Counted from the stretch's first letter, positions 624-17,906 are shown. The stretch: 64,000 nt of DNA from Halarcobacter sp. (GCA_048571215.1 CP182352.1:1312001-1376000); one strand, 5' to 3'. Made by a program: numbers and translations. The notes: generated from the letters alone by a model not told the origin.

Positions 624-767
624 AACTTAACTCCAATTTATTTAATATCTTCACCATAGCCAAAGTATCAAGTTTACAATACTCTAAAAGTGCACTTCTA
701 AGTTTCTCTTTACTTACCTCATCTAGCTTTGGTAAGTTTGCAAAGGCATTCATAGCTTGACTTCCAT
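616..767 (-). pseudogene. Relic 3' tail of a DUF2779-family gene
   Basis: GSQAMNAFANLPKLDEVSKEKLRSALLEYCKLDTLAMVKIL matches the C-terminus of the 5703..7193 protein. Confidence 0.85.
644..767. repeat. Imperfect ~124-bp direct repeat, copy 1 (copy 2 at 5728..5851)
   Basis: 653..707 is identical to 5737..5791 (55 bp); ungapped similarity continues to 767/5851. Confidence 0.95.
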
Positions 768-814
768 CTCTTTTGAAATCTAATATAATCATAGTAGATA
801 ACATTAATTCTATT

Positions 815-3800
815 TTAAACTTTTTTCATATATATTCGACAAAGTACTTGTTTAAAAGTTCTACTTTCTTTAGAATCAAACCAATGAACAACATAATCAA
901 CTTCAACATTCTCTTCTAATTGATATCCATTATTTAATTTTTCAATTATTTTATTTGATAATCTAGCTATTTTATCAGAACTTGCAGGTTTTGATAGTCT
1001 TGCAATTTTCATATTATCTTTGTATATTTCAAAGCCAAAATTATTTTCAACAATTTTACAAATATCTCCAGCAATAGGATTAATTTTTTCAATTCCTATG
1101 GCTGAATATCTATCAGAAAGAACTATATCTCCAAGTCCCATTATAAAAACAATTCTATTTAAATGTTCTTCTTGTTTTGAGTATTCAAAAACATTTGAAC
1201 AATAAGGAAGCATTGAATCAAATAAATGACTTTTTGTATGGATATTTAGATTCTTTTTAGCCCTAGTGATAGCTACATAAAGTAATCTTTTATCATAATC
1301 ATTTTTGATAAAATCATCATCTACTCCAATATATACACTATCAAACTCTTTACCTTTTGCTTTATGCATAGTAGAAACAACAACATTTGCTTTTGTATAT
1401 TCAAACTCCTCAAATGTTATTTCTTTTAAGTACTCCTCAAATAACATAATAAAATGATCTGGATTTTCTTGCATTTGGTTTTCATATTGAAGTAAAAACT
1501 TATCTATAACTTTATTTGCTAATTTATAGTTTTTAGATAGATTATATCTATTGTCAAAATAGTTCTTTGCAGCAGTTAAATTATTTTGTTTCCAAAATTC
1601 TAAAAAATCTTGTAGTTCTATTATATTACCCAAACTAAAACCATCTTTTGAAGTTATATATTTAACATTAATACCAATATTTACTAACTCTGAAAATATT
1701 GTTAATATATCTTCATTATTTCTAAGTAATACTGCAATGTTTTCAGATGTATCATTTTTTACTTGATTTACTATATTTTTGATAAAACTATTACTTTGAT
1801 AATATGTCAAATTTATCTCACCATCATTTGTAGCCTTGGATAATAACTGTTCTTTTTTTAATTTATTTGGAATAATGTCTCTAAATTTATTTGAAAAATT
1901 CACAATATTCATTTTACTTCTGTAATTTGTAAGTAATGAATATTTATTAAATTCAAAATCTTTTTCTTCATCAAATTCTTTAAAATCTTTTTCAAATTGA
2001 TTTATAAAAGCTATATTTGCACAATCTTCTCCAAAGTTATTAATACATTGATCATCATCACCAACTGCAATAATCTTTCTACCTTTAGTCATTTTTGAAT
2101 AAATAGTTTTTATAAAATTGTAAGTTTTAGAGCCAACATCTTGATATTCATCTAGTACAAGCATTTGTATATAAGGAAGTTCAATCTCATCATTATTTAA
2201 TAGTTTTGTTGCTTCTTCTATGACATTGATTAAAGAGATATTTTTATTATCTATTTTTTTACCCAGAAGATTAACCGCAAAAGAATGAAATGTAAATATT
2301 TTCATCTCGTATATTTGATTTCCCATGAGTTTTTGAAGTCTATCTCTAAATTCTGCTACTGCTACCCTAGAATGAGCTAACATCAAAAAATATTCTGGCT
2401 TATTTTGTTCTATTGTTACAAGTGAAGCTATTTTATGTACTAATGTTTTTGTTTTCCCACTACCTGGTCCTGCTAATACCATAATAGAATCACTCTTATC
2501 ATCTTCAAATATTTTCTTTTGTTCTTCATTTAAATCATAAATAATCTCTTTTAATCTCTCTTGTGTTACTGGTAATTTAATATGTTCTTCATTAAATTTG
2601 TATTTTTTCTTGAATTTAGAGTATTCCATACCAAAATAGTCTTTTACAAAAGAGGAAGCTTTGCTCCAGCCGTCTTTAACTAGTCTTTCAATAAAACTAA
2701 TCTGTATATGAATTGACTCTATTTTTCTTTCATAATATGGTTTTAAACTAACATTATAATGATCTCTTTTTCTATATGGTGTATTTTCTTTTATATTATC
2801 TTTTTTACTTATTTTATAAGTTTGATAGTATATAAGTCTACCTTTTCTTAGTTTGAAACTATTTTTAGTTAGTTCATGAAGATAAACTAATGAATGATGA
2901 AATCCTTCCAAAGATATTTTTTTCTTATTTCCATCATAGTCTATTTTTAATTTATTTGTAGAAACTTCTAATTCATCTTCATCTTTATCTTTTAATTGAT
3001 TAATTAAAAAATCAATAATATATTTACATGTTTCTTCTCTAACTTTTATCATATGAATCAATTTTGATAAATTACTTCTATCTAATTCGAAATTACAAGT
3101 ATATCTGTTAAAATGTACATTAAATATATTCGCTTTTAATTTTGATAAATGTGCCCAGCTTTGTATTATTTTTTTAATTACTGACAATCCATCTTTTATA
3201 TCAATTTCACTATTTATCTCTCTTAAATTTATACTTGTTTCAAAGTCATTTAAATCTTCAAATTTTTTAAGAATCAATTTTTCTAAATCAAAATATTTTT
3301 TAAATTCTTTAGATATAGATTTATGTACAAAAATACTTATGTCATTGTTATATTCTATTAATTTATTTTTTTGAAGTTCATATAAAACATCAAATATTTT
3401 TTTTCTTTCAATACCTACGATTTCAGCTAAATCATCAACTTCAATTGCATCTTTTTTACTTTTTTGAATAATATTATTCATAACTAAAATCATATAATTG
3501 TATATTTCGTATTGATATTGTTTCGCTAGTTCATCTTTCTTATCATCTATTACACTATGTACATAGTCCATACTATTTTTTTCTTCTACAGATGTAGCAA
3601 AAATTTTATAGCTATTTCGTCCTCTTTCTATGACTCCGGCTTGTTCTAACTCTAAAAGTGCAGTTTTAATCATAGTTTCATAATCTATACTTGAATCTTC
3701 CGTATCTATCCCCATTTGTTTTGCAAGTTGTCTAGGTGATATATAAAGTTCATCTCTTTTTTCTCTTTTTAAAACCTTTACAATTCTATCAATCTCGTGA

Positions 3801-5692
3801 TAGTCTAACTTAGATTTATTCAATTGACTAAAAGTTCTATTAAAATCTTCTTTAGAATATAATACGATACATCTTGCTGTATATTCTTCTTTTCTTGCAC
3901 CTCTACCAGATTCTTGTAAATATGACTCTAAACTATCAGATTGTTCATAGTGAATAACTGTTTGAATATCTGGTTTATCTATTCCCATACCAAAGGCAGT
4001 TGTAGCGATAACAATATCTATTTTATTGGATATAAAGTCATTTAATATTTCACTTTTATTCCGCCCTATTCTTTTTCCATTTTCAATTTCATAATCAATT
4101 TTTGAATAAAAAGGTTCTATATCTAAATTTAGTTCACTTAATCTCTCTTCTTTTCTTAGCTTTTCACTTAATTCTCTACATTCTCTAGCATTTTGTGGTA
4201 TATATACTATAGTAGGTCTTTTCCCTTGAGAAGCTAATTCTTGAACTAATACATTATATTTATCTTTTTTTGTATCTACTTCTATGGCTTTGTATTCAAG
4301 ATTATATCTTTTACTAGAGGCTATAAATTCTTTTAAATTTATATCTAGCTTTAATGCAAAATAGTTTTTAATATCATTTAAAACTTCTGGTTTTGCCGTT
4401 GCTGTGAAACAAGAAACAGGAATCTTTGGTTGAAATTTGGAATTTTCTTGATTTTCTAATTCTTTAATAGTAGTTGCAATAAAATAGTAATCATGTCTAA
4501 AATCATGTCCCCAAGAGGAAAAACAGTGTGCTTCATCAATAACAAATCTTTCAATAACTCTTTTTTTAAGTGCCTTAAATACAGAATTAGATCTAAGTGC
4601 TTCTGGAGCTAAATATAAGATATCAACGACCCCATTTTCAACTTCAGTTATTAAATTCATTCTCTCAATTGGACTTAAATATCCACTAATAGCTACTACT
4701 CTAAAATTTTGATTATTTTCTTTAAAACTATCAACATGGTTTTTCATCAATGCTTGTAAAGGAGAAATTACAACTGTTAAACCTTTATAAGCTTTTGCTT
4801 TTATTAATGCTGGCAATTGAAAAGTAAATGTTTTTCCTCCACCTGTAGGTAGGATTGCTAGAATTGAAGTATCATCTAAACTACTTTCTACTATGTCTTT
4901 TTGTGAGATTTTTCCAAAGCTAAATAAATCATTACTCTCTTTTTCAAATTCTCTAAAACTTGGTATATTAAACTCATCATTAGAAAATTTTATTAAATCA
5001 ATCTTTTCTTTATCATAAGTTAGTTTCTTCAAAACATCTACTACAAAAGGATATCTTATAAGTATTACTGAAGATATGGAAGCTTGTGAATCCGAATATA
5101 AATATGAAATTACATAAGATAACTCTGTAGGATATTTTTCTTTTACTTCTAAAAAATCTTCTCGTGTACAAACAACTTTATCTTTTACAAAATCATATAT
5201 ATCTACTTTTTCTTTTGAATAATTTTTGTATTTAAAGTAACCTACAAAATATTTATCTTCATATAGTAAATTAATGAATATATCTTTTAATTGATTACTT
5301 AAACTATCAAACTTTTTATCTAAGATTCTAAATAGTTCTTTTGTTTGTTCTGCATCTCCAAGAGGTTGATTTTCAATATTTATTTCAGTTTTATAAGGTT
5401 TATCTAGTTTATGTGTTTTTTTATTTACATATAGAAGCATCGATAAAAAAAGAGTATCTATTATTTCAATATCATTAAAAATAGGATTAAAAGATGTTTC
5501 TTGTAAAAACTTTTTATCATGGTCAATAAAATTATGTCCACAAATATATGTAGGATTAGTTTCATCAAAAACTTTTTTAATATCAGTTACAGAAGTAGTA
5601 GATAATTTATTTTTATCCACTACTAGTCCTAGTTTTTCTATCTTTTTACTATTAACATTAACTTCGATATCAAAAAAAGCTATATTTTCGAT
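815..5692 (-). CDS. Multidomain helicase: DEDD 3'-5' exonuclease-like + RecQ-family SF2 helicase + UvrD-like SF1 helicase
   Basis: RecQ motifs LPTGGGKT, SPLQALMKNHV, DEAHCFSSWGHDFR, TATA, ATTAFGMGIDKPD, QESGRGAR; UvrD motifs AGPGSGKT, LDEYQD, VGDDDQ, NYRS, TMHKAKGKEFD, LYVAITRAK. The N-terminal AFFDIEV motif lies upstream of the track's GTG (5620); start placed at ATC 5692, 6 nt after AAGGA. Confidence 0.88.
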   Translation of the reverse strand: MENIAFFDIEVNVNSKKIEKLGLVVDKNKLSTTSVTDIKKVFDETNPTYICGHNFIDHDKKFLQETSFNPIFNDIEIIDTLFLSMLLYVNKKTHKLDKPYKTEINIENQPLGDAEQTKELFRILDKKFDSLSNQLKDIFINLLYEDKYFVGYFKYKNYSKEKVDIYDFVKDKVVCTREDFLEVKEKYPTELSYVISYLYSDSQASISSVILIRYPFVVDVLKKLTYDKEKIDLIKFSNDEFNIPSFREFEKESNDLFSFGKISQKDIVESSLDDTSILAILPTGGGKTFTFQLPALIKAKAYKGLTVVISPLQALMKNHVDSFKENNQNFRVVAISGYLSPIERMNLITEVENGVVDILYLAPEALRSNSVFKALKKRVIERFVIDEAHCFSSWGHDFRHDYYFIATTIKELENQENSKFQPKIPVSCFTATAKPEVLNDIKNYFALKLDINLKEFIASSKRYNLEYKAIEVDTKKDKYNVLVQELASQGKRPTIVYIPQNARECRELSEKLRKEERLSELNLDIEPFYSKIDYEIENGKRIGRNKSEILNDFISNKIDIVIATTAFGMGIDKPDIQTVIHYEQSDSLESYLQESGRGARKEEYTARCIVLYSKEDFNRTFSQLNKSKLDYHEIDRIVKVLKREKRDELYISPRQLAKQMGIDTEDSSIDYETMIKTALLELEQAGVIERGRNSYKIFATSVEEKNSMDYVHSVIDDKKDELAKQYQYEIYNYMILVMNNIIQKSKKDAIEVDDLAEIVGIERKKIFDVLYELQKNKLIEYNNDISIFVHKSISKEFKKYFDLEKLILKKFEDLNDFETSINLREINSEIDIKDGLSVIKKIIQSWAHLSKLKANIFNVHFNRYTCNFELDRSNLSKLIHMIKVREETCKYIIDFLINQLKDKDEDELEVSTNKLKIDYDGNKKKISLEGFHHSLVYLHELTKNSFKLRKGRLIYYQTYKISKKDNIKENTPYRKRDHYNVSLKPYYERKIESIHIQISFIERLVKDGWSKASSFVKDYFGMEYSKFKKKYKFNEEHIKLPVTQERLKEIIYDLNEEQKKIFEDDKSDSIMVLAGPGSGKTKTLVHKIASLVTIEQNKPEYFLMLAHSRVAVAEFRDRLQKLMGNQIYEMKIFTFHSFAVNLLGKKIDNKNISLINVIEEATKLLNNDEIELPYIQMLVLDEYQDVGSKTYNFIKTIYSKMTKGRKIIAVGDDDQCINNFGEDCANIAFINQFEKDFKEFDEEKDFEFNKYSLLTNYRSKMNIVNFSNKFRDIIPNKLKKEQLLSKATNDGEINLTYYQSNSFIKNIVNQVKNDTSENIAVLLRNNEDILTIFSELVNIGINVKYITSKDGFSLGNIIELQDFLEFWKQNNLTAAKNYFDNRYNLSKNYKLANKVIDKFLLQYENQMQENPDHFIMLFEEYLKEITFEEFEYTKANVVVSTMHKAKGKEFDSVYIGVDDDFIKNDYDKRLLYVAITRAKKNLNIHTKSHLFDSMLPYCSNVFEYSKQEEHLNRIVFIMGLGDIVLSDRYSAIGIEKINPIAGDICKIVENNFGFEIYKDNMKIARLSKPASSDKIARLSNKIIEKLNNGYQLEENVEVDYVVHWFDSKESRTFKQVLCRIYMKKV

Positions 5693-5702
5693 TTTAAATC
5701 CT

Positions 5703-7193
5703 TTATTTATATTTCTTTAAAATTTTCAATATTTTTACCATAGCCAAAGTATCAAGTTTACAATACTCTAAAAGTGCACTTCTAAGTTTCTTTTTATCGC
5801 CCTCTTCTAGCTTACTCATACTTGCAAAGGCATTCATAGCTTGGCTTCCATTTTGTACACCCTCTAACTCTTTATATGCTTTTTCAAACTCAGGAACAAG
5901 TGCTGGCAATACATACTTTATAGAGTAACTTCCTTGCATACTTGGTGTTACGTACCATTTCTTTTGAAAAGGTATCATCAGGTCTTGCATATTTTCATTT
6001 ATGGCTAATAAGTGTGAGCTAAGCTTAGGAAAAAGGTTTGATAGTCTTTTTATCACACCTTTTTCAAAGCTCATATTGTAAGCCAATACTGTGACATCAC
6101 TTGGGATATCTTCACATAGTTTTAATGCTAACTCATATCTACTATCTACGCTATCCTCACTCAAATACTCTTTATGCTCTAAAGTGCCATCTTCATACTC
6201 TATATGAAGTGAATATTGAAAAGGGATTTGCTCGAAGGGTTTTATACCTTTGTATTGTGGTATAGCTTGTTGGTAGGTTTCAAAGTCTAAGTGATAGATT
6301 GGGTATGTGAGGTTTTCTAAAAAAGCTTTGATATTTTCTTTGTCTATATAACTTGCTTTTGATTTGTAGTTTTTTACTGCTTGTTTTTGATTTGCCGTCA
6401 TATCAAAATCTTCTGGAATATCTTCTATATCTATGATACCTTGATTGTATAATTCTATTTGCTTTTTACTTCCTAGATTGAAAATATTAAAGATAGAGTA
6501 CTCAGGTATATCTCGCTGACACTTCCAACAATAGTTTTTAGCATCACACTCATAAGGTTTGTTACAATGTTTTCCTATATCTATATCTGGTTCATTTACT
6601 TTATCTTCTAAGTAAGTTTCAAACTCTTTTAATATGCTTGGGATATTTGACTGTAAGCTTTGCACCTCACTAGTAACATCAACTATCTTAAAAAGCTTGT
6701 CTAATTCTAAAGACTCACCTCTTACATACTCATTGTTTATATGTACTACACTTGCACTTTTTATACTAAAGCCCATCTTGTCAAAAATGTTTTGTAAAAC
6801 ATAATACTGAATAGATACATCATGAAGATATATATCTTTTACCTCTGTAGAACTTTTAACCTCATAGATAGATACACCATCATCTTCTACTTTTAAAATA
6901 TCTACCATGATAAGTATTCCCTCAAAGTTAAAAGTAGCCTCAAAGATATTTGGTACACCCTCTTCCATCCACTCTTTTGTAGTAGATATCATCTCATCAT
7001 AGTTTGTAGTGTATGGTACTTCCCTACCATCAGGGAAAAGTTCGCAAGCTAAATCCCCTACTATATTTCCAGTTTCAAATATAGCCAGAGCTTGTTCATC
7101 TGGTGGTGTTAAGACACTTGGCTTATATTTTTTAAGCCAAAGTGCTTTGGGGCATTGGATGCCTCTTGTGTAGAGGGATTTGGATAGGTTCAT
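5703..7193 (-). CDS. DUF2779-domain protein (N-terminal Cas4-like/PD-(D/E)xK nuclease, C-terminal RNase H-like DUF2779)
   Basis: LSKS..CPKALWL, DIL..YEVKSST, C..PYEC...C cluster; LDFET, QIPFQYSLH, YNMSFEK, SIKYVLPAL, YCKLDTLAM. Confidence 0.85.
   Translation of the reverse strand: MNLSKSLYTRGIQCPKALWLKKYKPSVLTPPDEQALAIFETGNIVGDLACELFPDGREVPYTTNYDEMISTTKEWMEEGVPNIFEATFNFEGILIMVDILKVEDDGVSIYEVKSSTEVKDIYLHDVSIQYYVLQNIFDKMGFSIKSASVVHINNEYVRGESLELDKLFKIVDVTSEVQSLQSNIPSILKEFETYLEDKVNEPDIDIGKHCNKPYECDAKNYCWKCQRDIPEYSIFNIFNLGSKKQIELYNQGIIDIEDIPEDFDMTANQKQAVKNYKSKASYIDKENIKAFLENLTYPIYHLDFETYQQAIPQYKGIKPFEQIPFQYSLHIEYEDGTLEHKEYLSEDSVDSRYELALKLCEDIPSDVTVLAYNMSFEKGVIKRLSNLFPKLSSHLLAINENMQDLMIPFQKKWYVTPSMQGSYSIKYVLPALVPEFEKAYKELEGVQNGSQAMNAFASMSKLEEGDKKKLRSALLEYCKLDTLAMVKILKILKKYK
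5728..5851. repeat. Imperfect ~124-bp direct repeat, copy 2 (3' end of the intact DUF2779 gene)
   Basis: Matches copy 1 at 644..767. Confidence 0.95.
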
Positions 7194-7201
7194 CAAATAT
7201 C

Positions 7202-9781
7202 CTATAATATATTTTTAATTTCTTCATATTCTATAGAATTTCTATCGATTATATTTAACAATCTAGTCTTATCTATACTTTTAAACTTATCATTAGTATC
7301 AGTTATTATGCAATCTCCATATTCTGAATAAATAAGATTAGAAGTATGTCTTGATAAACCTAAGTTTTGTAAAATAATCATAATAGGACTTCTTGTCCCA
7401 TATTCTATAAATTGAGCCCAATTTACACCTGCATTATCTTCACCAAGTAACTCAACTAAAATAGAGTAATAATGTGTAAAATATTTCTCAAATGTAAATC
7501 TTAGTTTTCTTTCTATATTTTCTACTATTTCATTAATTAAAATATTTATGTGGTCTACACTATTATTAAATACTTCATATGTTTGCCAATCAACTTTAAC
7601 TGTAGCATTGTTTTCAAGATTCCATTTAATTGATTGATTTATAATTTGATTTAAGCTTTCACCATTAATCCATTGTGTGGCTAATAATGCATAATATCTC
7701 ATACTCTTTATTCCACCATTAAATTCCTCATGTTCATCCCACTTGTAGATATTATATAACCGTTCTAAAACTTTAAGCGTTGTTTCAAAATCTATAGTAG
7801 TAGGTAGTTTTATATTATTACCTTTTTCTAAATTAAATTTTATTATCTTAAAAACATCATTTTGAGAATTAATATTTATAGTTTGATTTGACTCTAAAAC
7901 AACAGTTGGTACTTCAACTTTATCAATTATTTCCTGAGCATATTTTAATATTTGAACTTTATTATTTTGAATCAATTTTTCTATAATTGGACTTTTATAT
8001 GTTGTTTTTAAATCTAAAGTATCAATACAAATCATATTAGCAATATATTTTAAAATCTTTTTTTCTTCTTTAGTCCCAGATATATCATTATCTTGTAATA
8101 ACTTTTCTATTTTTCTAATATTTCTATCTATTTTTTCATTAACTGTTGGCTTTAATTCTATTTCATTTTTTATCAATACTTCTTCTTTATTATCCCAAGT
8201 GTTTTCTTCATCACGAATACAAAATATATTTCCAGAAAGTTCTATTCCAAACCTACCAGCCCGACCAGCTAAATTCCAGAAATCAATTGGCTCAAACTTA
8301 GATAAACTTTTTTTATTACTTAAAATAATTACATTTTTAGCAGGAAGGTTAACCCCTTCTAAAAGTGTTGAAGTACAAAATACATACTTTAAAGCACCTT
8401 CTCTAAATAAATCTTCAATAATATTTCTCACTACTTGTGGCATATTACCAAAGTGATATCCAATTCCATACTCTAAAAAATCTACTAAGTAATAATCTTT
8501 ATGTATATGTAGTTTAATTTGTGCTATTGATAACTTAACTTTAGCTCTTAATTTATCAGACAAGATAGGTTTTATATCTTTTGTTTTAATAAAATCAAAA
8601 AAACCTTTTGCTTTTAAAATAGTTTTATTCTTAGAATTACAATAAATTAGATTATTATCATTTAACGTTATTTCATACAAAAAATCATTTATATTATTAA
8701 TCTTACTTAAAATATTCAAATATTGTTTTTCACTAGGATTATTATCCACAAAAAACAAAGAGTACTTTTCAATTAAATCTAAAAAAAATAAATTTTGATT
8801 TACAGATACTTCTTTTATCTGCTTATAGTTTTTCATAAATCCTCTACCAAACATATCTAAAAATATATTTGGATTTGAAACATTTGGGGAAGCAAAATAC
8901 AAATTTAGATTTGGATTTTTTTTCAAAAGCTTTTCAATTGCTAAATAGGAAGTTATACTTCTAGAGTCTTTATGAGATGCAATTTTATGAGCCTCGTCAA
9001 CAAATAAAAATCCAATAGGTGGATTTTCTAAAGAAGAAATATAACTTAAAATTCTCTCAGGAGTTAAAACTAAAATATAATTATTTAAAATGTTATCATC
9101 ATGTACAATAGTTGAATTAGTTAAAAGTTTATAATTATGTTGTTCAATTATATTATGTAATTCTGCTTTTATATCTATTACAAATTGATTTATAAGTGCC
9201 CTTGTGGGAACCATTATAATAATATTTTCAGGTGGTTTATTTTGCATAACTTTATGTAAAAAAGATTTCAATATAAAAGATTTCCCCATAGATGTAGGAG
9301 CAGAGAAACTAAACATTTTTGCATTACTAATATTTTTGAATAATTCATATTGAGTATCTGTAAAAATATACTTTTCATTAAAAGGAACAATTTGTATTTC
9401 TTTTTTTATTTGAGACTCAATATTTCTTTCTGTAGGTAAATTAAAATTAAATTTTTGATTTAAAAATTGTTGAATTGAATAAAAAGAACCAAGTTTAGTT
9501 AAAACAGCCAAAGCAAATTTGTTATATTGTTCATCTTCTTTGAATTTTTCATACATTAAGCTAACAATTTTTAATGAAATGTTTCTAAACTCTGATTCTT
9601 CACTACATGACATTATATCTGCAAATCTATATAAATGTGAAATTTCAAGCTGTGTTAAAACTTCAACATCAGATTCTTTAAATATAGTTTTAAAATTTAT
9701 CTCTGTTAATTTAAAAATTAGTTCATTTAAATATCCATCTTCTAATGCATCTTGTGATAATTTACTATAAATACTATCCAT
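7202..9781 (-). CDS. hamB: Hachiman HamB-type Ski2-like DEAD/DEAH helicase
   Basis: APTSMGKS, VPTRALINQ, LTPER, VDEAHK, TSTLLEGVNLPA, NLAGRAGR; overlaps a DUF1837 gene. Confidence 0.85.
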   Translation of the reverse strand: MDSIYSKLSQDALEDGYLNELIFKLTEINFKTIFKESDVEVLTQLEISHLYRFADIMSCSEESEFRNISLKIVSLMYEKFKEDEQYNKFALAVLTKLGSFYSIQQFLNQKFNFNLPTERNIESQIKKEIQIVPFNEKYIFTDTQYELFKNISNAKMFSFSAPTSMGKSFILKSFLHKVMQNKPPENIIIMVPTRALINQFVIDIKAELHNIIEQHNYKLLTNSTIVHDDNILNNYILVLTPERILSYISSLENPPIGFLFVDEAHKIASHKDSRSITSYLAIEKLLKKNPNLNLYFASPNVSNPNIFLDMFGRGFMKNYKQIKEVSVNQNLFFLDLIEKYSLFFVDNNPSEKQYLNILSKINNINDFLYEITLNDNNLIYCNSKNKTILKAKGFFDFIKTKDIKPILSDKLRAKVKLSIAQIKLHIHKDYYLVDFLEYGIGYHFGNMPQVVRNIIEDLFREGALKYVFCTSTLLEGVNLPAKNVIILSNKKSLSKFEPIDFWNLAGRAGRFGIELSGNIFCIRDEENTWDNKEEVLIKNEIELKPTVNEKIDRNIRKIEKLLQDNDISGTKEEKKILKYIANMICIDTLDLKTTYKSPIIEKLIQNNKVQILKYAQEIIDKVEVPTVVLESNQTININSQNDVFKIIKFNLEKGNNIKLPTTIDFETTLKVLERLYNIYKWDEHEEFNGGIKSMRYYALLATQWINGESLNQIINQSIKWNLENNATVKVDWQTYEVFNNSVDHINILINEIVENIERKLRFTFEKYFTHYYSILVELLGEDNAGVNWAQFIEYGTRSPIMIILQNLGLSRHTSNLIYSEYGDCIITDTNDKFKSIDKTRLLNIIDRNSIEYEEIKNIL

Positions 9782-10658
9782 TTACTAATCTTTCAATCAT
9801 ATTTTTTCTTGTTTCTTCAATTTTATTAATAGGCATAGTATATATATAGAAATCATAGCCTTTTAAATTTTCTTTTTTAAGTTGATTATTTATACTATCA
9901 ATACTTGCTAACACTATTTCTTCAATCTCTTCTTTAATTTTTTTTCTTGCTTCATCACCCTTTAAGGTACCGTCAAAGTTATAATCAAACCCTAAAAATA
10001 TGCCAAAAGCATTGTCTAAACTAATATTGCTTGAAACTCTTTTTTTAGGTAAAAGAATAGTTTTTAGCATCTCATAATCTTCATCTTTAAAAGCTTCTTT
10101 AGATAGGTTTGCATTAATTAAACTTTCATCAAAAGTATCCTGCTTTTTTTCTAAAAACTCTATAATTGATCCAAAAGCTTTATATATTGCGCCTTTTAAG
10201 TCTCCATATAATTTAGATTCACCAAATAGTAATTGATGTGTTGTTTCGTTTATTTTTAATAAATGTACACCATCTGAACCTTTTATATAATCATTATTAG
10301 ATGTTTTAAGCTCATATTTTGACAAAATTTTCGGAGCTTTTAAATGAGCTTCTAAAAAACAATACAATAAAACTTCTCCTAGTTCACCCTCATTAGAAGT
10401 ATATTTTCTAAATCGTTTTCTAGCTTCTCTAGATTTTTTACCACCATACTTGTCACCCATATTTTCAATTTGTTGCCTTGATAAAATGAATGGTATTATA
10501 TGATCATCAAGCTCATCTGCTAAAGAATCAACATTAAACATAGTATTTTTTATTTCTAAAGAAAATAAATTTAATTTATTTTGATTTTCTAATTTATAAT
10601 CTTTTATAACATGATAAAATAAGTCTAAGAAATCACATTTTATATCGGTCTTTAACAT
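9774..10658 (-). CDS. hamA: Hachiman HamA (DUF1837) nuclease
   Basis: GELGEVLLYCFLE..L.APKILSK.ELKT, GSDGVH, FGESKLY (PD-(D/E)xK-like); coupled to the helicase. Confidence 0.85.
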   Translation of the reverse strand: MLKTDIKCDFLDLFYHVIKDYKLENQNKLNLFSLEIKNTMFNVDSLADELDDHIIPFILSRQQIENMGDKYGGKKSREARKRFRKYTSNEGELGEVLLYCFLEAHLKAPKILSKYELKTSNNDYIKGSDGVHLLKINETTHQLLFGESKLYGDLKGAIYKAFGSIIEFLEKKQDTFDESLINANLSKEAFKDEDYEMLKTILLPKKRVSSNISLDNAFGIFLGFDYNFDGTLKGDEARKKIKEEIEEIVLASIDSINNQLKKENLKGYDFYIYTMPINKIEETRKNMIERLVNG

Positions 10659-10704: not shown

Positions 10705-12078
10705 TTAAGAAAAAGGAAGGTACTCTTCTTCAATATTTGATATGTGATTTATAAAATCATTATATGTATAATCTCTAGGATAATAACTAAATGATTTTAA
10801 ATCAAAATAATCATCTTTAGACATAAAATTTTTACCTATTTCTATAGATAATTGTTTAGCTTTTTCATAGTTTATCTCTGAAGATAAATTTAAATTAGTT
10901 ATACAATTATCTTCAATTTTTCCATTTAAAGATGATGCACCATACTTTTCTATTTCCTTCAAAAAATCAACGGTATATTTATCTGAGCCATAAATTAGTG
11001 TTGGATACACAGATAAGCCTTTAAAATACTTTTTATTATTTTCTAAAAAATCAATTGTTTCATTTAATGTTTCTTCTGTCTCACCAGGATAAAGTAAAAC
11101 ATTTACTTTTACCCAAATTCCATATTTAAAACAAAGCCTTATGAATTGCTGTGCTTTTTCTAAATATTTTAATGGATTATTTGTTTTTTGCATTCTTTTT
11201 AATTGTATATGACTTGCAGACTCTAAACCAAGATCAATTACTTTTAATCCACTAAGAGCTAATAATTTAATACTTTCTTCATTTAAATTAATATCTGCTC
11301 TAGTTTCACAACGCCATTGGTTTTTTAAATTATACTTATTATACAACTCATAAAATTCATTAATCCAGTTTTTTTTAGGTTTAAAGATTGATGATTCAAA
11401 ATAAAATTGGATATTTTTATCATTATATACTTTGCTTATTTCTTGGATTTCATTTACTAATTTTTCTGGCGATTTCATATTTGATACAAGAACATTTTTA
11501 TCAGCACAAAATCCACAACCCATGCCACAACCACGTGAAAGTTCAATTGAAGGCAAGATAGTTTTATAACTATCTAATAATGAATAATCCAATTTATTAA
11601 ATAATTGACTTTTTTCAGGTAAAGAAGCATTAATATATTCAGGTATGCCGCTTTGTTCTTTATTTTTTAATACTTCAGTCAATATACTTTCTGCTTGTCC
11701 ATTTACAATTATATCTACATCTTTAAAAGTTTTTAATGCCCAACTTTTATTAGATAATACCCATCTACCACCAAGTATAATTTTACAATTTAATTGAAAA
11801 CGTACTAGCTTTATAAATTCAATTCCCCAAGAAACTGCAAAAAAACTTGGTATAGAAATTAATATAGTATTATTTTGATTTCTATATTTTTTTAGCAACA
11901 ACTCAATTAACTTTTCAGGTGTAAAAAGTTCCCCTTGATAAACGATAACATTGTTTTCTGCACTTTTTAGTATTGTAGCAAGTCCTAATATCGCATAATT
12001 AAGATACACATGATTTTCTTGATGTTTTTTCTTTTTTTTAAGCATACCAGCTGAAATAAAAATATAATTATTATTCAT
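10705..12078 (-). CDS. B12-binding-domain radical SAM protein (class B methyltransferase-like)
   Basis: N-terminal LGLATIL / ILGG / GQAE cobalamin-binding-like fold; SRGCGMGCGFC (CxxxCxxC); ETRAD, GLESAS, PGET. Confidence 0.85.
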   Translation of the reverse strand: MNNNYIFISAGMLKKKKKHQENHVYLNYAILGLATILKSAENNVIVYQGELFTPEKLIELLLKKYRNQNNTILISIPSFFAVSWGIEFIKLVRFQLNCKIILGGRWVLSNKSWALKTFKDVDIIVNGQAESILTEVLKNKEQSGIPEYINASLPEKSQLFNKLDYSLLDSYKTILPSIELSRGCGMGCGFCADKNVLVSNMKSPEKLVNEIQEISKVYNDKNIQFYFESSIFKPKKNWINEFYELYNKYNLKNQWRCETRADINLNEESIKLLALSGLKVIDLGLESASHIQLKRMQKTNNPLKYLEKAQQFIRLCFKYGIWVKVNVLLYPGETEETLNETIDFLENNKKYFKGLSVYPTLIYGSDKYTVDFLKEIEKYGASSLNGKIEDNCITNLNLSSEINYEKAKQLSIEIGKNFMSKDDYFDLKSFSYYPRDYTYNDFINHISNIEEEYLPFS

Positions 12079-12601
12079 CAGGTTTTCCTATAATATTTAA
12101 TATATACTCCAAACTACTTTCAAAATCTGATATATCAACTTTATGGTATTTAATCTCATTTTTTTGAAACAATTCTAAAATATAATTATCAACATTTTTA
12201 TTTGACTCTTTATCTTTAGATCTATAACCATCATAAGTAAAAGGAATTCGCCCAATTGGTAAATAAAATATAAAATCATATATTTCCATATTTTTTAAAT
12301 ATATATTGAATAATTCTTTATCATCTACATTTCTATTAAATATATAAGCTATTGCATCTATGTATGTTCTATCCGTTATAAAGTGTTCGATAGATTTTTC
12401 ATTCTTTAACTTTTCATTTAACCAAATTTTCTGAAACTCAAGAAACTCTTTTTTATTAAGGTCATCAATATTTGTATGATTTAAATCATCAATTATTTTT
12501 CGAGAATCAACATTTATATACTTTAAAAGAAGTTTTTCCTCTAATGCCTTAGCTAATGTAGTTTTGCCAGTTGAACTAGCGCCAGAAAAAGCTATTTTCA
12601 T
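12071..12601 (-). CDS. P-loop nucleotide-kinase-like protein (AAA_28 / NadR-Ttd14-like)
   Basis: GASSTGKTT Walker A, TDRTYID (DR motif of NMP kinases), YDFIFYLP, DGYR lid. Confidence 0.8.
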   Translation of the reverse strand: MKIAFSGASSTGKTTLAKALEEKLLLKYINVDSRKIIDDLNHTNIDDLNKKEFLEFQKIWLNEKLKNEKSIEHFITDRTYIDAIAYIFNRNVDDKELFNIYLKNMEIYDFIFYLPIGRIPFTYDGYRSKDKESNKNVDNYILELFQKNEIKYHKVDISDFESSLEYILNIIGKPDE

Positions 12602-14319
12602 TTATTATCCATTGCTTTTATTTCATCTTTTCTACAAATAATTGGGACATATAACTTAAAATATGCAGAACCAATAACACCAGAAAACATATCAAAGATA
12701 GGCCAATTTTCTTCAATTCCAGCATTTAATGTGTGACTTATAGATATATCAGGATATGCATCAATGTAAACAACTCTTTTCATTTTTAATTGCATCGTTT
12801 TTTTCGCACATAATTGACAAGGAGAATCTGTAGTATAAAGAGTTCCATTGATTACACTTTCTCCACCAGACTTTGAGATTTGAAGAAAAGCATTTTCTTC
12901 TGCATGTAATGCTCTTTCTCTAGTAGGATTTTTAAACTTTGCCTTATCAAGAATTTGATAAACTATATCCTCTTGAATTCCTTCTTGCTTAATTTTTTTA
13001 GCTTTATCAATTAGTTCAATTTCAGCTTGTTTATCTTTAAAACAAAAAGGTAAAAATCTTTTTTCTTTATCAGCATAATAATTTTTTATAAATTTGTTAA
13101 ACTTAGTTGATCGTTCATATTTACTAAAAACCATATTCCCACTTGCATTTATTAATTGTTCAGGTGTTCTATATAAACATGGTATGTGATTTTCAGGTGT
13201 ATCATTCCAACCAAATCCTCTTAAATAACCATCTTCTCCTACCACTACTGCACCTACTTGTCTTGATATACATCCAGAATTATATCTTGCAGTAAAAGCT
13301 ACTTGCATAAACCTTTCATCATCATTTGGAGTAAATAAACCTGGTTTTCTGATTAATGCTATATATTTCACTAATTGTTTTTCCAATATAGTAGAATCAT
13401 CTTTATCATTATTAATAAATATATCGCCTTTTCCAATACAAGTATTTATTGCTTGTGATTCAATTCCGTTATCATTTGTTTCAAACTCTATAATATCTTT
13501 TAGGTTTTCAGGAGTTAACTCAAATGAGTTTTCAATTCTATTTTTTCTTGTCTCTTCACTTGCCATAATAGAAAAAAGATAAAAAGACTGATATCTATTT
13601 CTAAAAAATTCTATTTCAAAAATATTGCGCAATGCATCTACTATAAAAAAGTCTTTTTTCCCCTCATCTTTGTTTTCTTTTCTAACTAATTTTATAACCC
13701 TACGAATAATTTCAGGGATTATAAAAATATTTAAATCTTTTTCATCTTCCAAATTTATTAATGATGATATTTTACTTTTACTACTTTTAAGTATTTTGCC
13801 TTCATTTCTCACATTCTTACCAATTTCTTGAAATAGAGGTGTATATTTTGGGTTTGACTTATCAATATACTTGTTTATATATTCATTTGTTTTAGAAAGA
13901 ATATCTTTGAAATCTTTTGTATCGTAAGTGCTATAATTTTTTAGTATATCTATAAAACTACTAGATAAGTCTTTTATATCCTGTAAAGTATCTTTATCTT
14001 TAAAAATATCTTTATACTCATCTACATTTTTAAGGTCATTTACAAAAAATAAAAATAGTAAATCTGAAACTCTAATATGAAAAAACTCATTCCAATCATT
14101 ATTTTCATAAAAATATTTAACATTTTGAACTTTTCTATATTCTAAATCAAATTCTTCTTTAGCTCCAGAATCTAAAATACTATTTATATCTATCTTAGTA
14201 ATATTTTTTGATAAAAATTTAGCAGTTTCAGTGCACCCGCTACCTAATGCTCCTGTTAAACCAACTATTATAAATTCACTTCTTAAATTTTTCAAAATAG
14301 TTTGAATATCATTTTTCAC
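12598..14319 (-). CDS. Anti-phage dCTP/dCMP deaminase (AvcD/DcdV type: P-loop domain + deaminase)
   Basis: N-terminal VGLTGALGSGCT; C-terminal SGCISRQVGA, GWND.P, HAEENA, SPCQLC zinc-deaminase motifs; GTG start after AAGGAG. Confidence 0.9.
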   Translation of the reverse strand: MKNDIQTILKNLRSEFIIVGLTGALGSGCTETAKFLSKNITKIDINSILDSGAKEEFDLEYRKVQNVKYFYENNDWNEFFHIRVSDLLFLFFVNDLKNVDEYKDIFKDKDTLQDIKDLSSSFIDILKNYSTYDTKDFKDILSKTNEYINKYIDKSNPKYTPLFQEIGKNVRNEGKILKSSKSKISSLINLEDEKDLNIFIIPEIIRRVIKLVRKENKDEGKKDFFIVDALRNIFEIEFFRNRYQSFYLFSIMASEETRKNRIENSFELTPENLKDIIEFETNDNGIESQAINTCIGKGDIFINNDKDDSTILEKQLVKYIALIRKPGLFTPNDDERFMQVAFTARYNSGCISRQVGAVVVGEDGYLRGFGWNDTPENHIPCLYRTPEQLINASGNMVFSKYERSTKFNKFIKNYYADKEKRFLPFCFKDKQAEIELIDKAKKIKQEGIQEDIVYQILDKAKFKNPTRERALHAEENAFLQISKSGGESVINGTLYTTDSPCQLCAKKTMQLKMKRVVYIDAYPDISISHTLNAGIEENWPIFDMFSGVIGSAYFKLYVPIICRKDEIKAMDNK

Positions 14320-14331
14320 TTACAACTCCTT

Positions 14332-14435
14332 CTAATCAAAATTTAACCCACTCGTCCCATCACCCTTAGGTTCAACCTTTATCTGCAATAGAACTCTTTT
14401 CTTTGTGCTTCCACATGGGAAATCACACCTATAAC
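14332..14435 (-). pseudogene. Frameshifted relic of the 3' end of a different, E. coli-type sbcC
   Basis: Reads VIGVISHVEA and then, after a one-base frameshift, KKRVLLQIKVEPKGDGTSGLNFD*; resembles the SbcC H-loop tail (GVISHVEAMKERIPVQIKV in E. coli, from memory). Confidence 0.65.
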
Positions 14436-16798
14436 TCTACAACATGTTCAAACATCTCCTTTATCTCCAACTCATGACTTATCAAAAATATCTGCCTATA
14501 CTGCTCTTTTATCATATGAAAGGCTTCTAGTATCTCCATTCTTCTTGCCTCGTCTTGGCTTCCGAATACTTCATCGAAGGCTAGGAAGCCTATTTGTGAG
14601 CTTCCGCTTAGTTCGCTTAGGGTTTTTGATATGGCGATTCGTAGAACTAGGTTTGCTAGGTCTATTTCTCCACCTGAGAATCTCTCTATTGGGTACTTTT
14701 TACCTTCATCGTAGATATAAAAGTCGAAGTCGTTTGATACTTCTATGTGTTGGTATTTGCCTTTTGTGATTTGGGCGTACATGTTTGAGGCTATGTCGGA
14801 TATTCTTGGGGCTACTTTTGAGTTTAGTTTTGTTTTAAATTCACTTAGGCTTAGCTTGATTTTGTCGTAGCCGATTAGGTCGTCTTTTTTTGTTTGTACT
14901 TTTTTTAGTTGGATTTCGTTGTTATCTAGACTTGATTGGATGGTTTTTATTTCACCTTCACATTGGGCTATTTTGACTTTGATTTCATTTACTTGACCTA
15001 CTTTTAACTCATAAGTTTGATGGTGTTCTTCGTACTCTTTTTGTTTGGCTGTGTGTGCTGTTTCATCGTAGGCTATTTGTTTGTAGTCTATCTCTTTTGT
15101 ATCGTAAGTGCTATTTTGCTCTGTGATTTTTTTGCTGATATTTTCTAGGTCTTGTTTTACACTATCATATCTTTTTAGCATGGTTTCTAATGATTTCATT
15201 TGTTCGTATTTTGGTTGGATTTCATTGAAACTATTTTCTAATTTTTTATGTTTGTTTTCATCGTAACTATATTTATCTAGTTTGGCTATTTCGTCGTTGT
15301 TTTCTTTGCCTTTTTGCTCTACCTTGTTTAGATGGCTTGATAGGTTTTGTAAATCTTTTTGTTTACTGTTTATAAGAGCTAGTTGTGAGTTTAGTTCACT
15401 TTGGGTTTTATCTATTTGCTCTTTTTGGGTTTCTATTGTTTTTTTATTTGTCTCTACTTCTTGTAGTTCTATATTTAGCTTTGTGATTTTGTTTGTTTGT
15501 ATTTCATTTATGGTTGAGTTTAGTGAGCCTATTACATTGTCGTACTCTTCTAAAAGTGGTCTTGTACAGGTTGGGCAGTTGGATTCTTTGCCTAGGGCTT
15601 GGATTTGTTGTATTTTTGCTGTGGTGTCGTTTATCACTCTTTGTTCTGCAAAGATATTTGAGTTTAGCTCTTTTTCTTTTGTTTGTATTTGAGTTAGGGT
15701 TTGTTTGATTTGCTCTTGTTGGGTTTTTGTTTCTTGCTTTTTTTGTTTTAGTGCCTCAAAACCTTCACACTCTTTTTGTAAGATGGCTATGTCATTTTTG
15801 GCTTTTTTGTATTGCTCTCTTAATTGAACTTGTTCTTTTATCAAGCCCTCTTTTTTTAGGCTGTATTCTTTTAGTTGTATTTGCTCTTTTAGACTTGTTT
15901 GTAGGGTTTCATACTCTTTTTTTATAGGCTCTAAGGCTTTATATTGGAGTTGTTTTTCTTCTAGGTCTTTTAGCTCGGTTGAGAGTTTGTTTTGGTTTTC
16001 TATATTTGAGTTGATACTATTTTTTAGAAGATTTAGTTCGCTTAGGGCTTTTTGTTTTGCCTCTTTTGTTTTAGCAAAACTTTCTAGCTCTTTTTTTATC
16101 TCTAGCTCTTTTAGTTTTAGACTATTTATTTGTTTGCTTTGGGTTTGTAGCTCTTTATTTAGAGTTTTTTTGATGGCTTCATTTGATTTTATTTGTTCTT
16201 TTTTTATTTGTATATCTTCTGCGCTTAAAAGCACTTCTGCAAAGGCTGAAATCTCTCTTTTTAGTTCCCTGCTCTTTTCTATGAGTTCTTTTTCTATGTA
16301 GTCGATTTTTTCTAAACCTAAGAGCTTTCTTATCATTCTTTTTCTATCTTCTAGTTTGCTATTACTTAGACTTGTAAGCTCTTTTTGGCTGGCAAATAAT
16401 GTATGTAAAAAGGCTTCTTTATTCATCTTTGTTAGTTTCATGATACTTGTAGTTACTTCTTTGGCACCACTTGTTATTAGTTCACCGTTTTTATAAAGTT
16501 TGGCATTGGCACTAAGTGCCTTTCCTCTAAACTCTCGTACTACTTTATACTCAATTGAGTCAAATTCAAAGTCTAGTTCTACTAATACCACATCTTTTGT
16601 AGTGGCATTGGCATTTCGCACAATCTCTTTATAACCTCTATCTTTAAACTCCCCATAAAGTGCAAAAAGTATCGCTTCGAAGATAGTGGATTTACCACTT
16701 CCATTTTTACCTATGATTCCAACTAATCCCTCATCAAAATCTAGTTCGAAAGTTTTGTATCGTTTGAAGTTTTCAAGTTTTAGCTTACAAAGTATCAT
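14429..16798 (-). CDS. sbcC: SbcC/Rad50 SMC-like ATPase
   Basis: GKNGSGKS, long coiled coil, CPTC zinc hook, FSGGE signature, FDEVFGSQD, LISH. Confidence 0.92.
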   Translation of the reverse strand: MILCKLKLENFKRYKTFELDFDEGLVGIIGKNGSGKSTIFEAILFALYGEFKDRGYKEIVRNANATTKDVVLVELDFEFDSIEYKVVREFRGKALSANAKLYKNGELITSGAKEVTTSIMKLTKMNKEAFLHTLFASQKELTSLSNSKLEDRKRMIRKLLGLEKIDYIEKELIEKSRELKREISAFAEVLLSAEDIQIKKEQIKSNEAIKKTLNKELQTQSKQINSLKLKELEIKKELESFAKTKEAKQKALSELNLLKNSINSNIENQNKLSTELKDLEEKQLQYKALEPIKKEYETLQTSLKEQIQLKEYSLKKEGLIKEQVQLREQYKKAKNDIAILQKECEGFEALKQKKQETKTQQEQIKQTLTQIQTKEKELNSNIFAEQRVINDTTAKIQQIQALGKESNCPTCTRPLLEEYDNVIGSLNSTINEIQTNKITKLNIELQEVETNKKTIETQKEQIDKTQSELNSQLALINSKQKDLQNLSSHLNKVEQKGKENNDEIAKLDKYSYDENKHKKLENSFNEIQPKYEQMKSLETMLKRYDSVKQDLENISKKITEQNSTYDTKEIDYKQIAYDETAHTAKQKEYEEHHQTYELKVGQVNEIKVKIAQCEGEIKTIQSSLDNNEIQLKKVQTKKDDLIGYDKIKLSLSEFKTKLNSKVAPRISDIASNMYAQITKGKYQHIEVSNDFDFYIYDEGKKYPIERFSGGEIDLANLVLRIAISKTLSELSGSSQIGFLAFDEVFGSQDEARRMEILEAFHMIKEQYRQIFLISHELEIKEMFEHVVEL

Positions 16799-17906
16799 CA
16801 TAAGCCTCCTCGTACTTGCTAAATAGTTCTTGAATTTTTGGTTTTAGTCTATCAAACTCTTTGTTTTCACTTTGTTCTTTTATATGGTCTAAAAAGTACT
16901 CCTCTAAAGATAAAGCTTGAATATCATCTAAGGTATTACCCTCATTTGTATCTTTTTTGAACTCTCTTTTTATACTTACACTCATAGCAAGCGGGAAAAG
17001 TGCTTTTATCTCTTGGTTTTGTATATCTATTGATTGCATGGTTGTTAGGTTTTGAAGTTTTACTTCTACAATGGCATCTTTTGTATCGCTTGTATCTAAT
17101 GTGTCAAGGGCATTTTGATAGTTTTCACAATCTATTGTTTTAGATATTATTGGTCGTATTTTTATCTCTTTGTATTCTACGTCTAATTTATCGCTTAAGT
17201 TTACAAGAGCATAGCCTTTTGAGTTTCGTTTGTCATTTAGACTTGTACGCTCACTACTTCCACTATAGTATACATTTTCATGTTTGCCCACAGAGCCAAA
17301 ACCATGCCAATGTCCAAGTGCTACATAATCCATCTTTTCAAAAATATACTCTTTGTCTGTAGGATAAACCCACTCCCCAAACTCTTGCATCAAATACCAA
17401 GCTCCAACAGAACAGTGCATCATCATGATATTTCTTTTATCAGGGTTGATATTTTTTTCACATAAGTTTATCTCATCTTCTGCTTTTGTTTCATCATTCA
17501 TATGTGGTAAAGTATGGAAAACTATATCATCAAACTCTATTTTTTTGTAGTTTTGTTCATATGATACATGTACATTTTCAAACTCTTCAAATATCTTTAA
17601 AATTGGAGAGCTAAGATTTGTACGTGGTGTTGAGTGGTTTCCAGCTATCATGATGATAGGGATATTTAGTTTATCAAGTCTTTTGAACTCTTTTAGAGCA
17701 AAGGTTATAGCTCTATTGCTTGGAGAGCTTCTATGAAAAAGGTCGCCTGTATGTATTATAAAATCTGGTTTGATATTTTCTATATCATCAACTATTTGAG
17801 AAAAAGCATCGTAAAAGTCTGCTTCCCTTTGGTTGATATTTTCTTCATTTAATATCTCTAAGTCGTTGTATCCTAAGTGAGTATCACTAAAATGTATTAT
17901 TTTCAA
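16785..17906 (-). CDS. sbcD: SbcD/Mre11 metallophosphoesterase nuclease
   Basis: SDTHLG, GDLFH, AGNH, ALGHWH; overlaps sbcC. Confidence 0.92.
   Translation of the reverse strand: MKIIHFSDTHLGYNDLEILNEENINQREADFYDAFSQIVDDIENIKPDFIIHTGDLFHRSSPSNRAITFALKEFKRLDKLNIPIIMIAGNHSTPRTNLSSPILKIFEEFENVHVSYEQNYKKIEFDDIVFHTLPHMNDETKAEDEINLCEKNINPDKRNIMMMHCSVGAWYLMQEFGEWVYPTDKEYIFEKMDYVALGHWHGFGSVGKHENVYYSGSSERTSLNDKRNSKGYALVNLSDKLDVEYKEIKIRPIISKTIDCENYQNALDTLDTSDTKDAIVEVKLQNLTTMQSIDIQNQEIKALFPLAMSVSIKREFKKDTNEGNTLDDIQALSLEEYFLDHIKEQSENKEFDRLKPKIQELFSKYEEAYDDTL

Follow-up and report, generated by a model that had tools for sequence, protein, structure and literature searches.

A dCTP deaminase gene coupled to nucleotide kinase and radical SAM genes in Halarcobacter sp.: a rare variant of a candidate antiviral cassette

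In a 64,000-nucleotide stretch of the genome of Halarcobacter sp. (GCA_048571215.1 CP182352.1:1312001-1376000; "the window" denotes this whole stretch), three genes at positions 10705-14319 encode a dCTP deaminase of the anti-phage type, a small nucleotide kinase, and a radical S-adenosylmethionine (SAM) enzyme. Comparison with related loci revealed that the trio belongs to a cassette whose invariant core is a class-B-type radical SAM enzyme of about 460 amino acids (aa), with which a kinase and a deoxynucleoside triphosphate (dNTP)-destroying enzyme are usually associated. From these sequences, the trio may form one functional module that combines the depletion of a natural dNTP with the synthesis of a modified nucleotide, and thus represent a rare variant of a defence-island cassette; our own judgement on this reading is evenly divided. 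The same three activities were found together in unrelated bacteria, and therefore they probably constitute one antiviral nucleotide system.

The open reading frame (ORF) listing showed three genes on the minus strand, which encode proteins of 573 aa (with a GTG start), 176 aa, and 457 aa. The deaminase gene occupies positions 12598..14319, the kinase gene 12071..12601, and the radical SAM gene 10705..12078. The stop codon of the deaminase gene and the start codon of the kinase gene overlap by four nucleotides, ATGA (12598..12601, minus strand, read as 'aaATGAaa'), and the stop codon of the kinase gene and the start codon of the radical SAM gene share the eight nucleotides ATGAATAA (12071..12078, minus strand). 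Both junctions were read directly from the letters, and together with the ORF coordinates they bear out a preliminary description of this DNA, which had treated the three overlapping genes as a unit. The same description had sited the trio between sbcC and a Hachiman system, and family matches agreed: SbcC (14429-16801) and SbcD (16785-17906) are encoded upstream, and Hachiman lies downstream at 7202..10658 on the minus strand, with HamA at 9774-10658 (PADLOC, E = 1.3e-99) and HamB at 7202-9781 (3.3e-293). The metagenome contig L086 has the same gene order and encodes proteins that are 76-84% identical to those of the window trio. In addition, near-identical or about 90% identical trios with both junctions bridged were present on contigs of two further studies (X6 record 11 and X7 record 20). 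The arrangement is therefore not a product of chance. We predict that the three genes form one translationally coupled operon, and they are presumably co-transcribed. A promoter and terminator scan yielded 80 promoter-like sites versus 83 expected and 3 terminator-like sites versus 3.0 expected; it placed none of these sites between the three genes, and in DNA as AT-rich as this the scan is uninformative.

The first gene encodes a protein of the AvcD-like anti-phage dCTP deaminase type, with a P-loop-like N-terminal domain and a C-terminal zinc deaminase domain. The protein matched the PADLOC dCTPase model (E = 4.6e-110, residues 4-568), the NCBIfam model NF041025 for anti-phage dCTP deaminases (4.4e-95, residues 16-562), and PF00383 (2.1e-15, residues 332-518). 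The zinc site HAE...PCxxC is located at residue 471, and dCMP deaminases in the PDB could be aligned at residues 466-524 only. Around residue 20, the sequence GLTGALGSGCT forms a Walker-A-like loop without the lysine. The NF041025 score of 319.1 bits is lower than the curated equivalog cut-off of 400, and the 573 aa of the protein compare with 437 positions in the profile, so that the deaminase is a divergent or expanded member of the family. It shares with AvcD and other anti-phage dCTP deaminases the two-domain build and the strong matches to the family models. In contrast to them, its gene appears to be translationally coupled to a kinase gene and a radical SAM gene; anti-phage dCTP deaminases are reportedly encoded by single genes or controlled by a small RNA. 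The family is known only from phage defence, and depletion of dCTP or dCMP by the window protein is predicted from its family membership. Among 401 sampled genomes of the host phylum, one contained the deaminase.

The 176-aa protein, termed K28, is a putative small nucleoside or nucleotide kinase with a Walker A motif GxSSTGKT and a DR motif. It matched PF13521 (AAA_28) with an E-value of 1.2e-18, and its best PADLOC match was VakA (1.9e-6), a name the meaning of which is unconfirmed. An alignment of ten homologues showed that the Walker A motif, the DR motif, and a lid arginine are retained throughout, the invariant residues being G7, S10, T11, G12, K13, D77, R78, and R127. A sequence search of the PDB gave nothing significant (best E = 0.042). 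AlphaFold2 (AF2) models, with a predicted local distance difference test (pLDDT) value of 92 for the radical SAM enzyme and 91 for the kinase, were used for Foldseek searches, and the top matches of the kinase were the ribosylnicotinamide kinase domain of NadR (8x7f, 3.2e-7), a mycoplasma deoxyadenosine kinase (2jat, 6.4e-7), and thymidylate kinases. The kinase model thus suggests a deoxynucleoside kinase/thymidylate kinase (dNK/TMPK) fold that matches nucleoside kinases. A predicted complex of the kinase with the radical SAM enzyme reached a best score of 0.24 versus a mark of 0.32.

The radical SAM enzyme has a class-B-like architecture, with a Rossmann-like N-terminal domain, a barrel, and a C-terminal domain. 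The barrel matched PF04055 (9.9e-15, residues 178-345), and the CxxxCxxC motif (C184/C188/C191) is invariant in 20 homologues. The basic residues K16, K17, R256, R260, K298, and K324 are invariant as well. Many NCBIfam models of B12-dependent radical SAM proteins were matched weakly, all of them far below cut-off. In the Foldseek search OxsB (1.4e-16) ranked first, with TsrM at 2.2e-16. Over residues 1-457, the VIA Z-scores were 25.4 for AprD4, 23.6 for OxsB, 23.4 for MgmA, and 21.9 for TsrM; those for CysS and for MiaB/RimO were 21.5 and about 20, respectively. Residues 1-141 resemble the corrinoid-binding protein 1y80 (Z 12.0). Viperin structures, in contrast, aligned to the radical SAM core only (residues ~170-431, Z 12.0-12.6), so the earlier view that the enzyme is not viperin-like was correct.

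To define the family to which the trio belongs, related loci were compared. A database search returned at least 570 radical SAM homologues, the best 120 of which all had E-values below 1e-94; they came from Campylobacterota, Clostridia, Paenibacillus, Pseudomonadota, and many metagenomes. Loci were gathered with an alignment of 20 homologues and amounted to 70, namely 12 from genomes, 56 from metagenomes, the genome locus G055, and the window. From the genome scan, 12 of the 80 retained loci were used (E <= 2e-72) and 68 distant radical SAM proteins (E >= 4e-14) were dropped; from the metagenome scan, 56 of the 80 retained loci were used (E <= 5e-31) and 24 were dropped. All ORFs up to 5 kb away were grouped into clusters, and one or more members of a cluster were annotated with Pfam, PADLOC, and NCBIfam; a neighbour was counted if it was no more than three genes away from the radical SAM gene. 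The host's family was represented by 184 genomes, 3 of which contained the radical SAM gene. The cassette is widespread but sporadic. A scan of viral contigs revealed no orthologue and two weak matches of 25% identity among 404 pattern matches; because two peptide patterns were used, absence from phages is unproven. Four metagenome loci (L135, L136, L132, L137) have a radical SAM gene that is broken into two ORFs, and these copies are likely to be frameshifted or decaying.

Nucleotide enzymes were frequent beside the radical SAM gene. In the following, the second number refers to the 31 loci with at least 2 kb of sequence on both flanks. A nucleotide kinase was a neighbour in 22 of the 70 loci (15 of 31), an HD hydrolase in 15 (9 of 31), and a cytidine/dCMP-type deaminase in 5 (2 of 31). 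A kinase together with a dNTP-destroying enzyme was found in 7 loci (6 of 31), i.e. the window, L086, L087, L098, L112, L008, and L124, and any nucleotide enzyme in 35 (20 of 31). The 22 kinases comprised 10 AAA_28 proteins, 10 proteins of the dTMP kinase type, which are usually divergently transcribed, and 2 other P-loop kinases. A dTMP-kinase-type partner scored 139.9 bits with TIGR00041 (cut-off 83). The tmk and dGTPase genes of the cassettes are additional copies in their genomes: two tmk genes above the cut-off were found in each of three genomes. Among the 15 HD hydrolases, 12 are of the dGTPase type ("HD1") and 3 are more distant ("HD2"). HD1 proteins exceeded the TIGR01353 cut-off in five of five tested cases, and with PRK04926 they reached 630 and 598 bits at a cut-off of 405; judged by these scores, the HD1 proteins are genuine dGTP triphosphohydrolases. 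G055, which has a dGTPase cassette, holds two dGTPases, and the HD partner in L004 matched the PADLOC dGTPase model at 3.7e-72. Of the five deaminases, those of the window and L086 are of the long form, and those of L124, L116, and L103 are small, with 155-200 aa. At L124 the three activities of the window are repeated with a small deaminase and a radical SAM enzyme of only 36% identity. SurE nucleotidase occurred in three loci and NUDIX in one.

The preliminary description had made its proposal depend on linkage of the three families elsewhere. For the kinase this linkage was clear, since it adjoins the radical SAM gene in the 22 loci mentioned. For the deaminase it held in part: linkage was seen for the long form in L086 and for the small forms in three loci, and the long form is rare (2 of 70). 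The long dCTP deaminase is thus a rare and replaceable part, and the usual third partner is an HD hydrolase of the dGTPase type. Like a dCTP deaminase, the anti-phage dGTPase (NCBIfam NF041026, PADLOC dGTPase) depletes one dNTP, and it differs from the window case in that the window's cassette contains none. The only dGTP triphosphohydrolase of the host genome is encoded at window positions 38989-40425 (TIGR01353, 7e-103), 25 kb away from the cassette; it adjoins a ComEC-like gene and response regulators and is therefore probably a housekeeping copy.

Two further types of partner recurred in the relatives. A DUF5919-like protein of about 294 aa accompanies the kinase/radical SAM pair in L001, L091, L094, L119, L134, L139, and L095. 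It has two N-terminal hydrophobic helices and an invariant C-terminal pattern, RxWAxGxTN ... D..I..W ... P...H; it has no counterpart in the window and may be an effector. A protein of about 900 aa with C-terminal tetratricopeptide (TPR) repeats is encoded in L007, L009, L012, L096, L114, L115, L117, and L126; its first 600 aa or so are not assigned to any domain. Its gene is co-transcribed with a dTMP-kinase-type gene and divergent from the radical SAM gene, which is the Pseudomonadota version of the cassette.

The relationship between the partners was examined on a quick maximum-likelihood tree, which comprised the 53 radical SAM proteins of full length and excluded 17 truncated or split copies. 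The window protein formed a clade with L085 and L086 that is nested among the dGTPase-bearing L084, L087, L090, L089, and G055, with Shimodaira-Hasegawa-like approximate likelihood ratio test (SH-aLRT) values of 98, 99, and 96. In G055 and L084 the radical SAM enzyme is 72% identical to that of the window and the gene order is radical SAM, dGTPase, a 230-aa protein (U230), and DUF2779; in L087 the identity is 62% and the order is SbcC, dGTPase, U230, kinase, radical SAM, and DUF2779. Because of this nesting, the dCTP deaminase most likely replaced a dGTPase in the lineage of the window. The closest relatives thus have a dGTPase in the place of the deaminase, so that two unrelated dNTP-depleting enzymes swap at one position. 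U230 showed no similarity to the N-terminal domain of the deaminase in a BLASTP comparison (best E = 0.64). In the tree as a whole, HD1 occurred in at least four clades and the small deaminase in three. A dGTPase, a long deaminase, or a small deaminase directly adjoins the radical SAM gene on the same strand in 20 of the 70 loci, which belong to several clades, and the gaps between the radical SAM gene and its partner are typically 0-20 nucleotides. The exchange of dGTPase and deaminase beside the same core is the strongest argument for a functional linkage, as opposed to mere clustering in islands.

If the trio acts as one module, the deaminase would, on infection, drain dCTP and dCMP into deoxyuridine nucleotides, in the same way as the stand-alone anti-phage dCTP deaminases. 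The kinase and the radical SAM enzyme would convert a nucleoside or nucleotide, possibly a deoxy form, into an analogue with a modified sugar or base. Candidate chemistries are C-methylation as by TsrM, MgmA, and CysS, a ring rearrangement of a deoxynucleotide similar to that of OxsB with its HD partner, or a 1,2-diol dehydration as by AprD4 or viperin. The folds favour this reading, since the kinase resembles nucleoside kinases and the radical SAM enzyme resembles OxsB, the substrates of which are deoxyadenosine phosphates. Phage DNA synthesis might then be hit twice, by removal of a substrate and by supply of a poisoned competitor, and depletion of the natural competitor could sharpen the effect of the analogue. 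The route suggested earlier, in which deaminated deoxynucleotides are phosphorylated and then methylated, leaves the dGTPase variants unexplained. A more general version would be a modular immune family in which the radical SAM enzyme and the kinase make the antiviral analogue and an interchangeable dGTPase, dCTP deaminase, or small dCMP deaminase removes the competing dNTP; we put this forward tentatively and regard it as possible, albeit doubtful. If true, such a family would amount to "SAMHD1 plus viperin in one operon" in bacteria, and its products (methylated, ring-contracted, or dehydrated deoxynucleotides) would differ in chemistry from the 3'-deoxy-3',4'-didehydro (ddh) nucleotides. 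Starvation for dNTPs and chain-terminating analogues are known separately, and both would be combined in one operon if the cassette is a unit. In that case, a new radical SAM reaction on nucleotides and possibly a new natural antiviral nucleoside may be expected. The close relatives, in which one radical SAM core is combined with a dCTP deaminase in some cases and with a dGTPase in others, represent a concrete test set.

The genomic context is that of defence. A PADLOC scan of neighbours covered 113 proteins (for each locus, the nearest non-core ORFs with 200 aa or more, four at most) at 37 of 52 eligible loci, and named defence systems were strongly matched beside 10 of these 37. They were Hachiman (twice), Gabija (twice), Lamassu, IetAS, KwaB (Kiwa), a type I restriction-modification (RM) system, an Argonaute-associated nuclease model, and a PD-T4-6-like kinase; the window adds its own Hachiman.

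Several points weigh against a single module of dNTP depletion and analogue synthesis. The 10 of 37 is a raw rate without a background control. Only 2 of 70 loci contain the long deaminase, and both belong to one lineage. No partner is obligatory, as 10 of the 31 well-flanked loci lack a recurrent partner and contain the radical SAM gene alone. The partner counts overstate independence, because many loci are close kin (e.g. L003/L102, L012/L114, and L110/L129/L111). Neither the DUF5919-like protein of 7 loci nor the TPR protein of 8 loci is a nucleotide enzyme. To combine a dGTPase or SurE with a kinase would seem pointless, except if the substrate of the radical SAM enzyme has to be in a certain state of phosphorylation. 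Cobalamin is a further point. The cobalamin-binding-like N-terminus that had been proposed holds at the level of the fold, with Z-scores of 21-25 to structures of class B type, and does not hold at the level of the sequence, as the Pfam B12-binding model PF02310, recorded for many members of this radical SAM family, scores nothing on the window protein. The best structural match by Z-score, AprD4, is a dehydratase that we take to be cobalamin-independent. Moreover, a cobalamin riboswitch was not found in the host genome. In favour of B12 use, the host has B12 enzymes, namely an ORF of MetH size and a glutamate-mutase-like cluster, and the latter indicates that the host uses cobalamin. This cluster is located in the window at 49879-52859 and encodes a small B12-binding subunit as well as MutE-like and MutL-like proteins. 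At the fold level, the model points to a class-B-type enzyme, which may or may not depend on B12 and methylate its substrate.

Stand-alone dCTP deaminases and dGTPases are said to protect by themselves, and adjacency could therefore be mere island clustering. The main rival explanation is that two self-sufficient systems share one transcription unit, one being an AvcD-type deaminase and the other a radical SAM/kinase pair that makes its own antiviral nucleotide, similar to viperin and CMPK2. Of the 70 loci, 22 pair the radical SAM gene with a kinase and only 2 with the long deaminase, the scores of the deaminase are those of an ordinary anti-phage dCTP deaminase, and defence genes cluster in general, with Hachiman directly downstream of the trio. 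The pair also resembles a separate candidate system in PADLOC, PDC-M51, which consists of a B12-type radical SAM protein (PDC-M51A) and a small dNK/TMPK-type kinase (PDC-M51B). On the other hand, the stop codon of the deaminase gene overlaps the start codon of the kinase gene as ATGA, and at 20 of the 70 loci the immediate neighbour of the radical SAM gene encodes a dNTP-destroying enzyme of one of three unrelated kinds, which is hard to obtain from clustering alone. On balance, we consider two independent systems rather unlikely.

The comparison with PDC-M51 also shows what is new in the window. The dTMP-kinase-type partners of the relatives matched PDC-M51B with E-values of 1e-14, 4.3e-13, and 8e-12, and the radical SAM proteins of L001, L006, and L007 matched PDC-M51A at 1.2e-13, 1.6e-6, and 5.8e-4, respectively; L008 and L010 gave no match. 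The window proteins match these models weakly or not at all. The radical SAM enzyme matched PDC-M51A weakly (9e-12, 42.5 bits, residues 52-349 of 457), and the kinase had no PDC-M51B match at E <= 0.01. The PDC candidates were proposed because of their association with defence systems and are themselves untested, according to the parts of the source available to us, in which the legend of Fig. 6E names radical SAM, dNK, and TPR among the multi-gene examples and the description of the candidate mentions no dNTP-destroying third gene (Payne et al. 2024, bioRxiv 10.1101/2024.01.29.577857). In the literature that we searched, neither a dCTP deaminase nor a dGTPase is linked to a radical SAM enzyme of this kind. 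The earlier impression that the combination is undescribed thus has to be narrowed: the pairing of radical SAM enzyme and kinase is already catalogued as a candidate, and the dCTP deaminase partner is what is new.

The diversity of the partners raises the possibility of signalling. According to this explanation, the radical SAM enzyme and the kinase would make a modified-nucleotide signal that switches on interchangeable effectors, i.e. the deaminase, the dGTPase, the DUF5919-like protein, or the TPR protein. A conserved core with swappable and very different partners is reminiscent of CBASS, Pycsar, and Thoeris. Enzymes of the dGTPase family are allosterically regulated by nucleotides, and the partner with two helices has the DUF5919-like region that is elsewhere fused to TIR-like and helix-turn-helix (HTH) domains. 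However, neither the window deaminase nor the HD proteins contained a recognisable SAVED, CARF, SLOG, or cNMP-binding domain, the three-gene version is without an evident sensor of infection, and SurE, NUDIX, and the use of two kinase families point to bulk nucleotide metabolism. Signalling therefore seems improbable to us.

The similarity to OxsB is relevant for a non-immune function, which might be nucleotide salvage or modification, a nucleoside antibiotic cluster of the oxetanocin type, or modification of the cell's own DNA or RNA. In the biosynthesis of oxetanocin A, the B12 radical SAM enzyme OxsB converts deoxyadenosine phosphates and has the HD phosphohydrolase OxsA as its partner. The two systems (PDB 5UL2-4 for OxsB/OxsA) are alike in that OxsB matches the whole length of the radical SAM model and in that an HD hydrolase adjoins the radical SAM gene in 15 of 70 relatives. 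They differ in that the identity is 17-18%, the aligned chain range of OxsB is 116-636 and its residues before 116 have no counterpart, the HD partners of the relatives are dGTPase-type proteins of 440-495 aa in contrast to the small OxsA, and the window operon has no HD gene. As AprD4 and MgmA match about as well, the fold does not single out OxsB chemistry. Plain metabolic surroundings were observed at L006, L105, and L131. In contrast, the distribution is sporadic and island-borne, named defence systems are neighbours at 10 of 37 loci as described above, L005 is embedded in a type I RM operon, genes for export or resistance do not recur, and the deaminase of the window comes from a family of phage defence. 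A non-immune role is the least likely of the explanations considered, and we regard it as very improbable.

With an antiviral module as the preferred reading, a parallel in logic is offered by the prokaryotic viperins (pVips), for which a radical SAM enzyme and a nucleotide kinase are likewise encoded in defence islands and an antiviral nucleotide is expected. Prokaryotic viperin genes occur with an adjacent nucleotide kinase gene, and animal viperin works with CMPK2. The differences are that viperins are single-domain proteins, which correspond to the core barrel of the window enzyme, and that the window cassette adds a dNTP-depleting partner. The pVip models of PADLOC had no match to the window radical SAM enzyme at E <= 0.01.

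The flanks of the trio retain traces of its history. Directly after the stop codon of the resident sbcC, a relic of the 3' end of a long-type sbcC is present at 14330..14428 (minus strand) in two frames, GVISHVEAQRKE... and ...LLQIKVEPKGDGTSGLNFD with the stop codon. The peptides, also given as GVISHVEA... and ...IKVEPKGDGTSGLNFD with the stop codon, correspond to about the last 30 residues of the SbcC proteins of L086 and L087, in both of which a long-type SbcC is encoded upstream of the cassette. With tblastn, residues 1172-1189 of the L087 SbcC matched window positions 14403-14350 with 72% identity. On the other side, a DUF2779 protein of 497 aa is encoded at 5703..7196 (minus strand; PF11074, 3.7e-46), with Hachiman between its gene and the trio. 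Its N-terminal part weakly matches Cas4 (1.9e-4). Homologues with 66-77% identity adjoin the cassette in three of three close relatives with sufficient flanks (L086, L084, and L087), and the DUF2779 protein may be a fourth component, a fellow traveller, or an independent system that consists of one gene. The last part of the DUF2779 gene is also present as a relic of 43 codons, 79% identical, at window positions 643-771, between a WYL gene and a gene for a 1601-aa helicase. Because of the sbcC and DUF2779 relics, the cassette seems to have come by recombination at a hotspot downstream of sbcC that is shared among these Campylobacterota, and it seems to have been interrupted later by Hachiman and the large helicase gene.

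Additional features were noted in the window and in L086. The 1601-aa protein (815-5620) is a fusion of a RecQ-like DEAD helicase and a UvrD/GajB-like helicase that matched the PADLOC models DpdF (1.1e-72) and PsyrT (7.8e-67); its gene probably also belongs to the defence genes of the island. The adjoining gene for a WYL regulator (3-623) runs off the edge of the window. Between its split sbcC and its deaminase gene, L086 encodes a 236-aa protein (3156-3866; PADLOC PDC-S05, 9.5e-94) for which the window has no equivalent. Finally, a 696-aa fusion of DinB_2, FGE-sulfatase, and methyltransferase domains is encoded at window positions 45283-47373, and it has what we take to be the build of OvoA, the enzyme of ovothiol synthesis.

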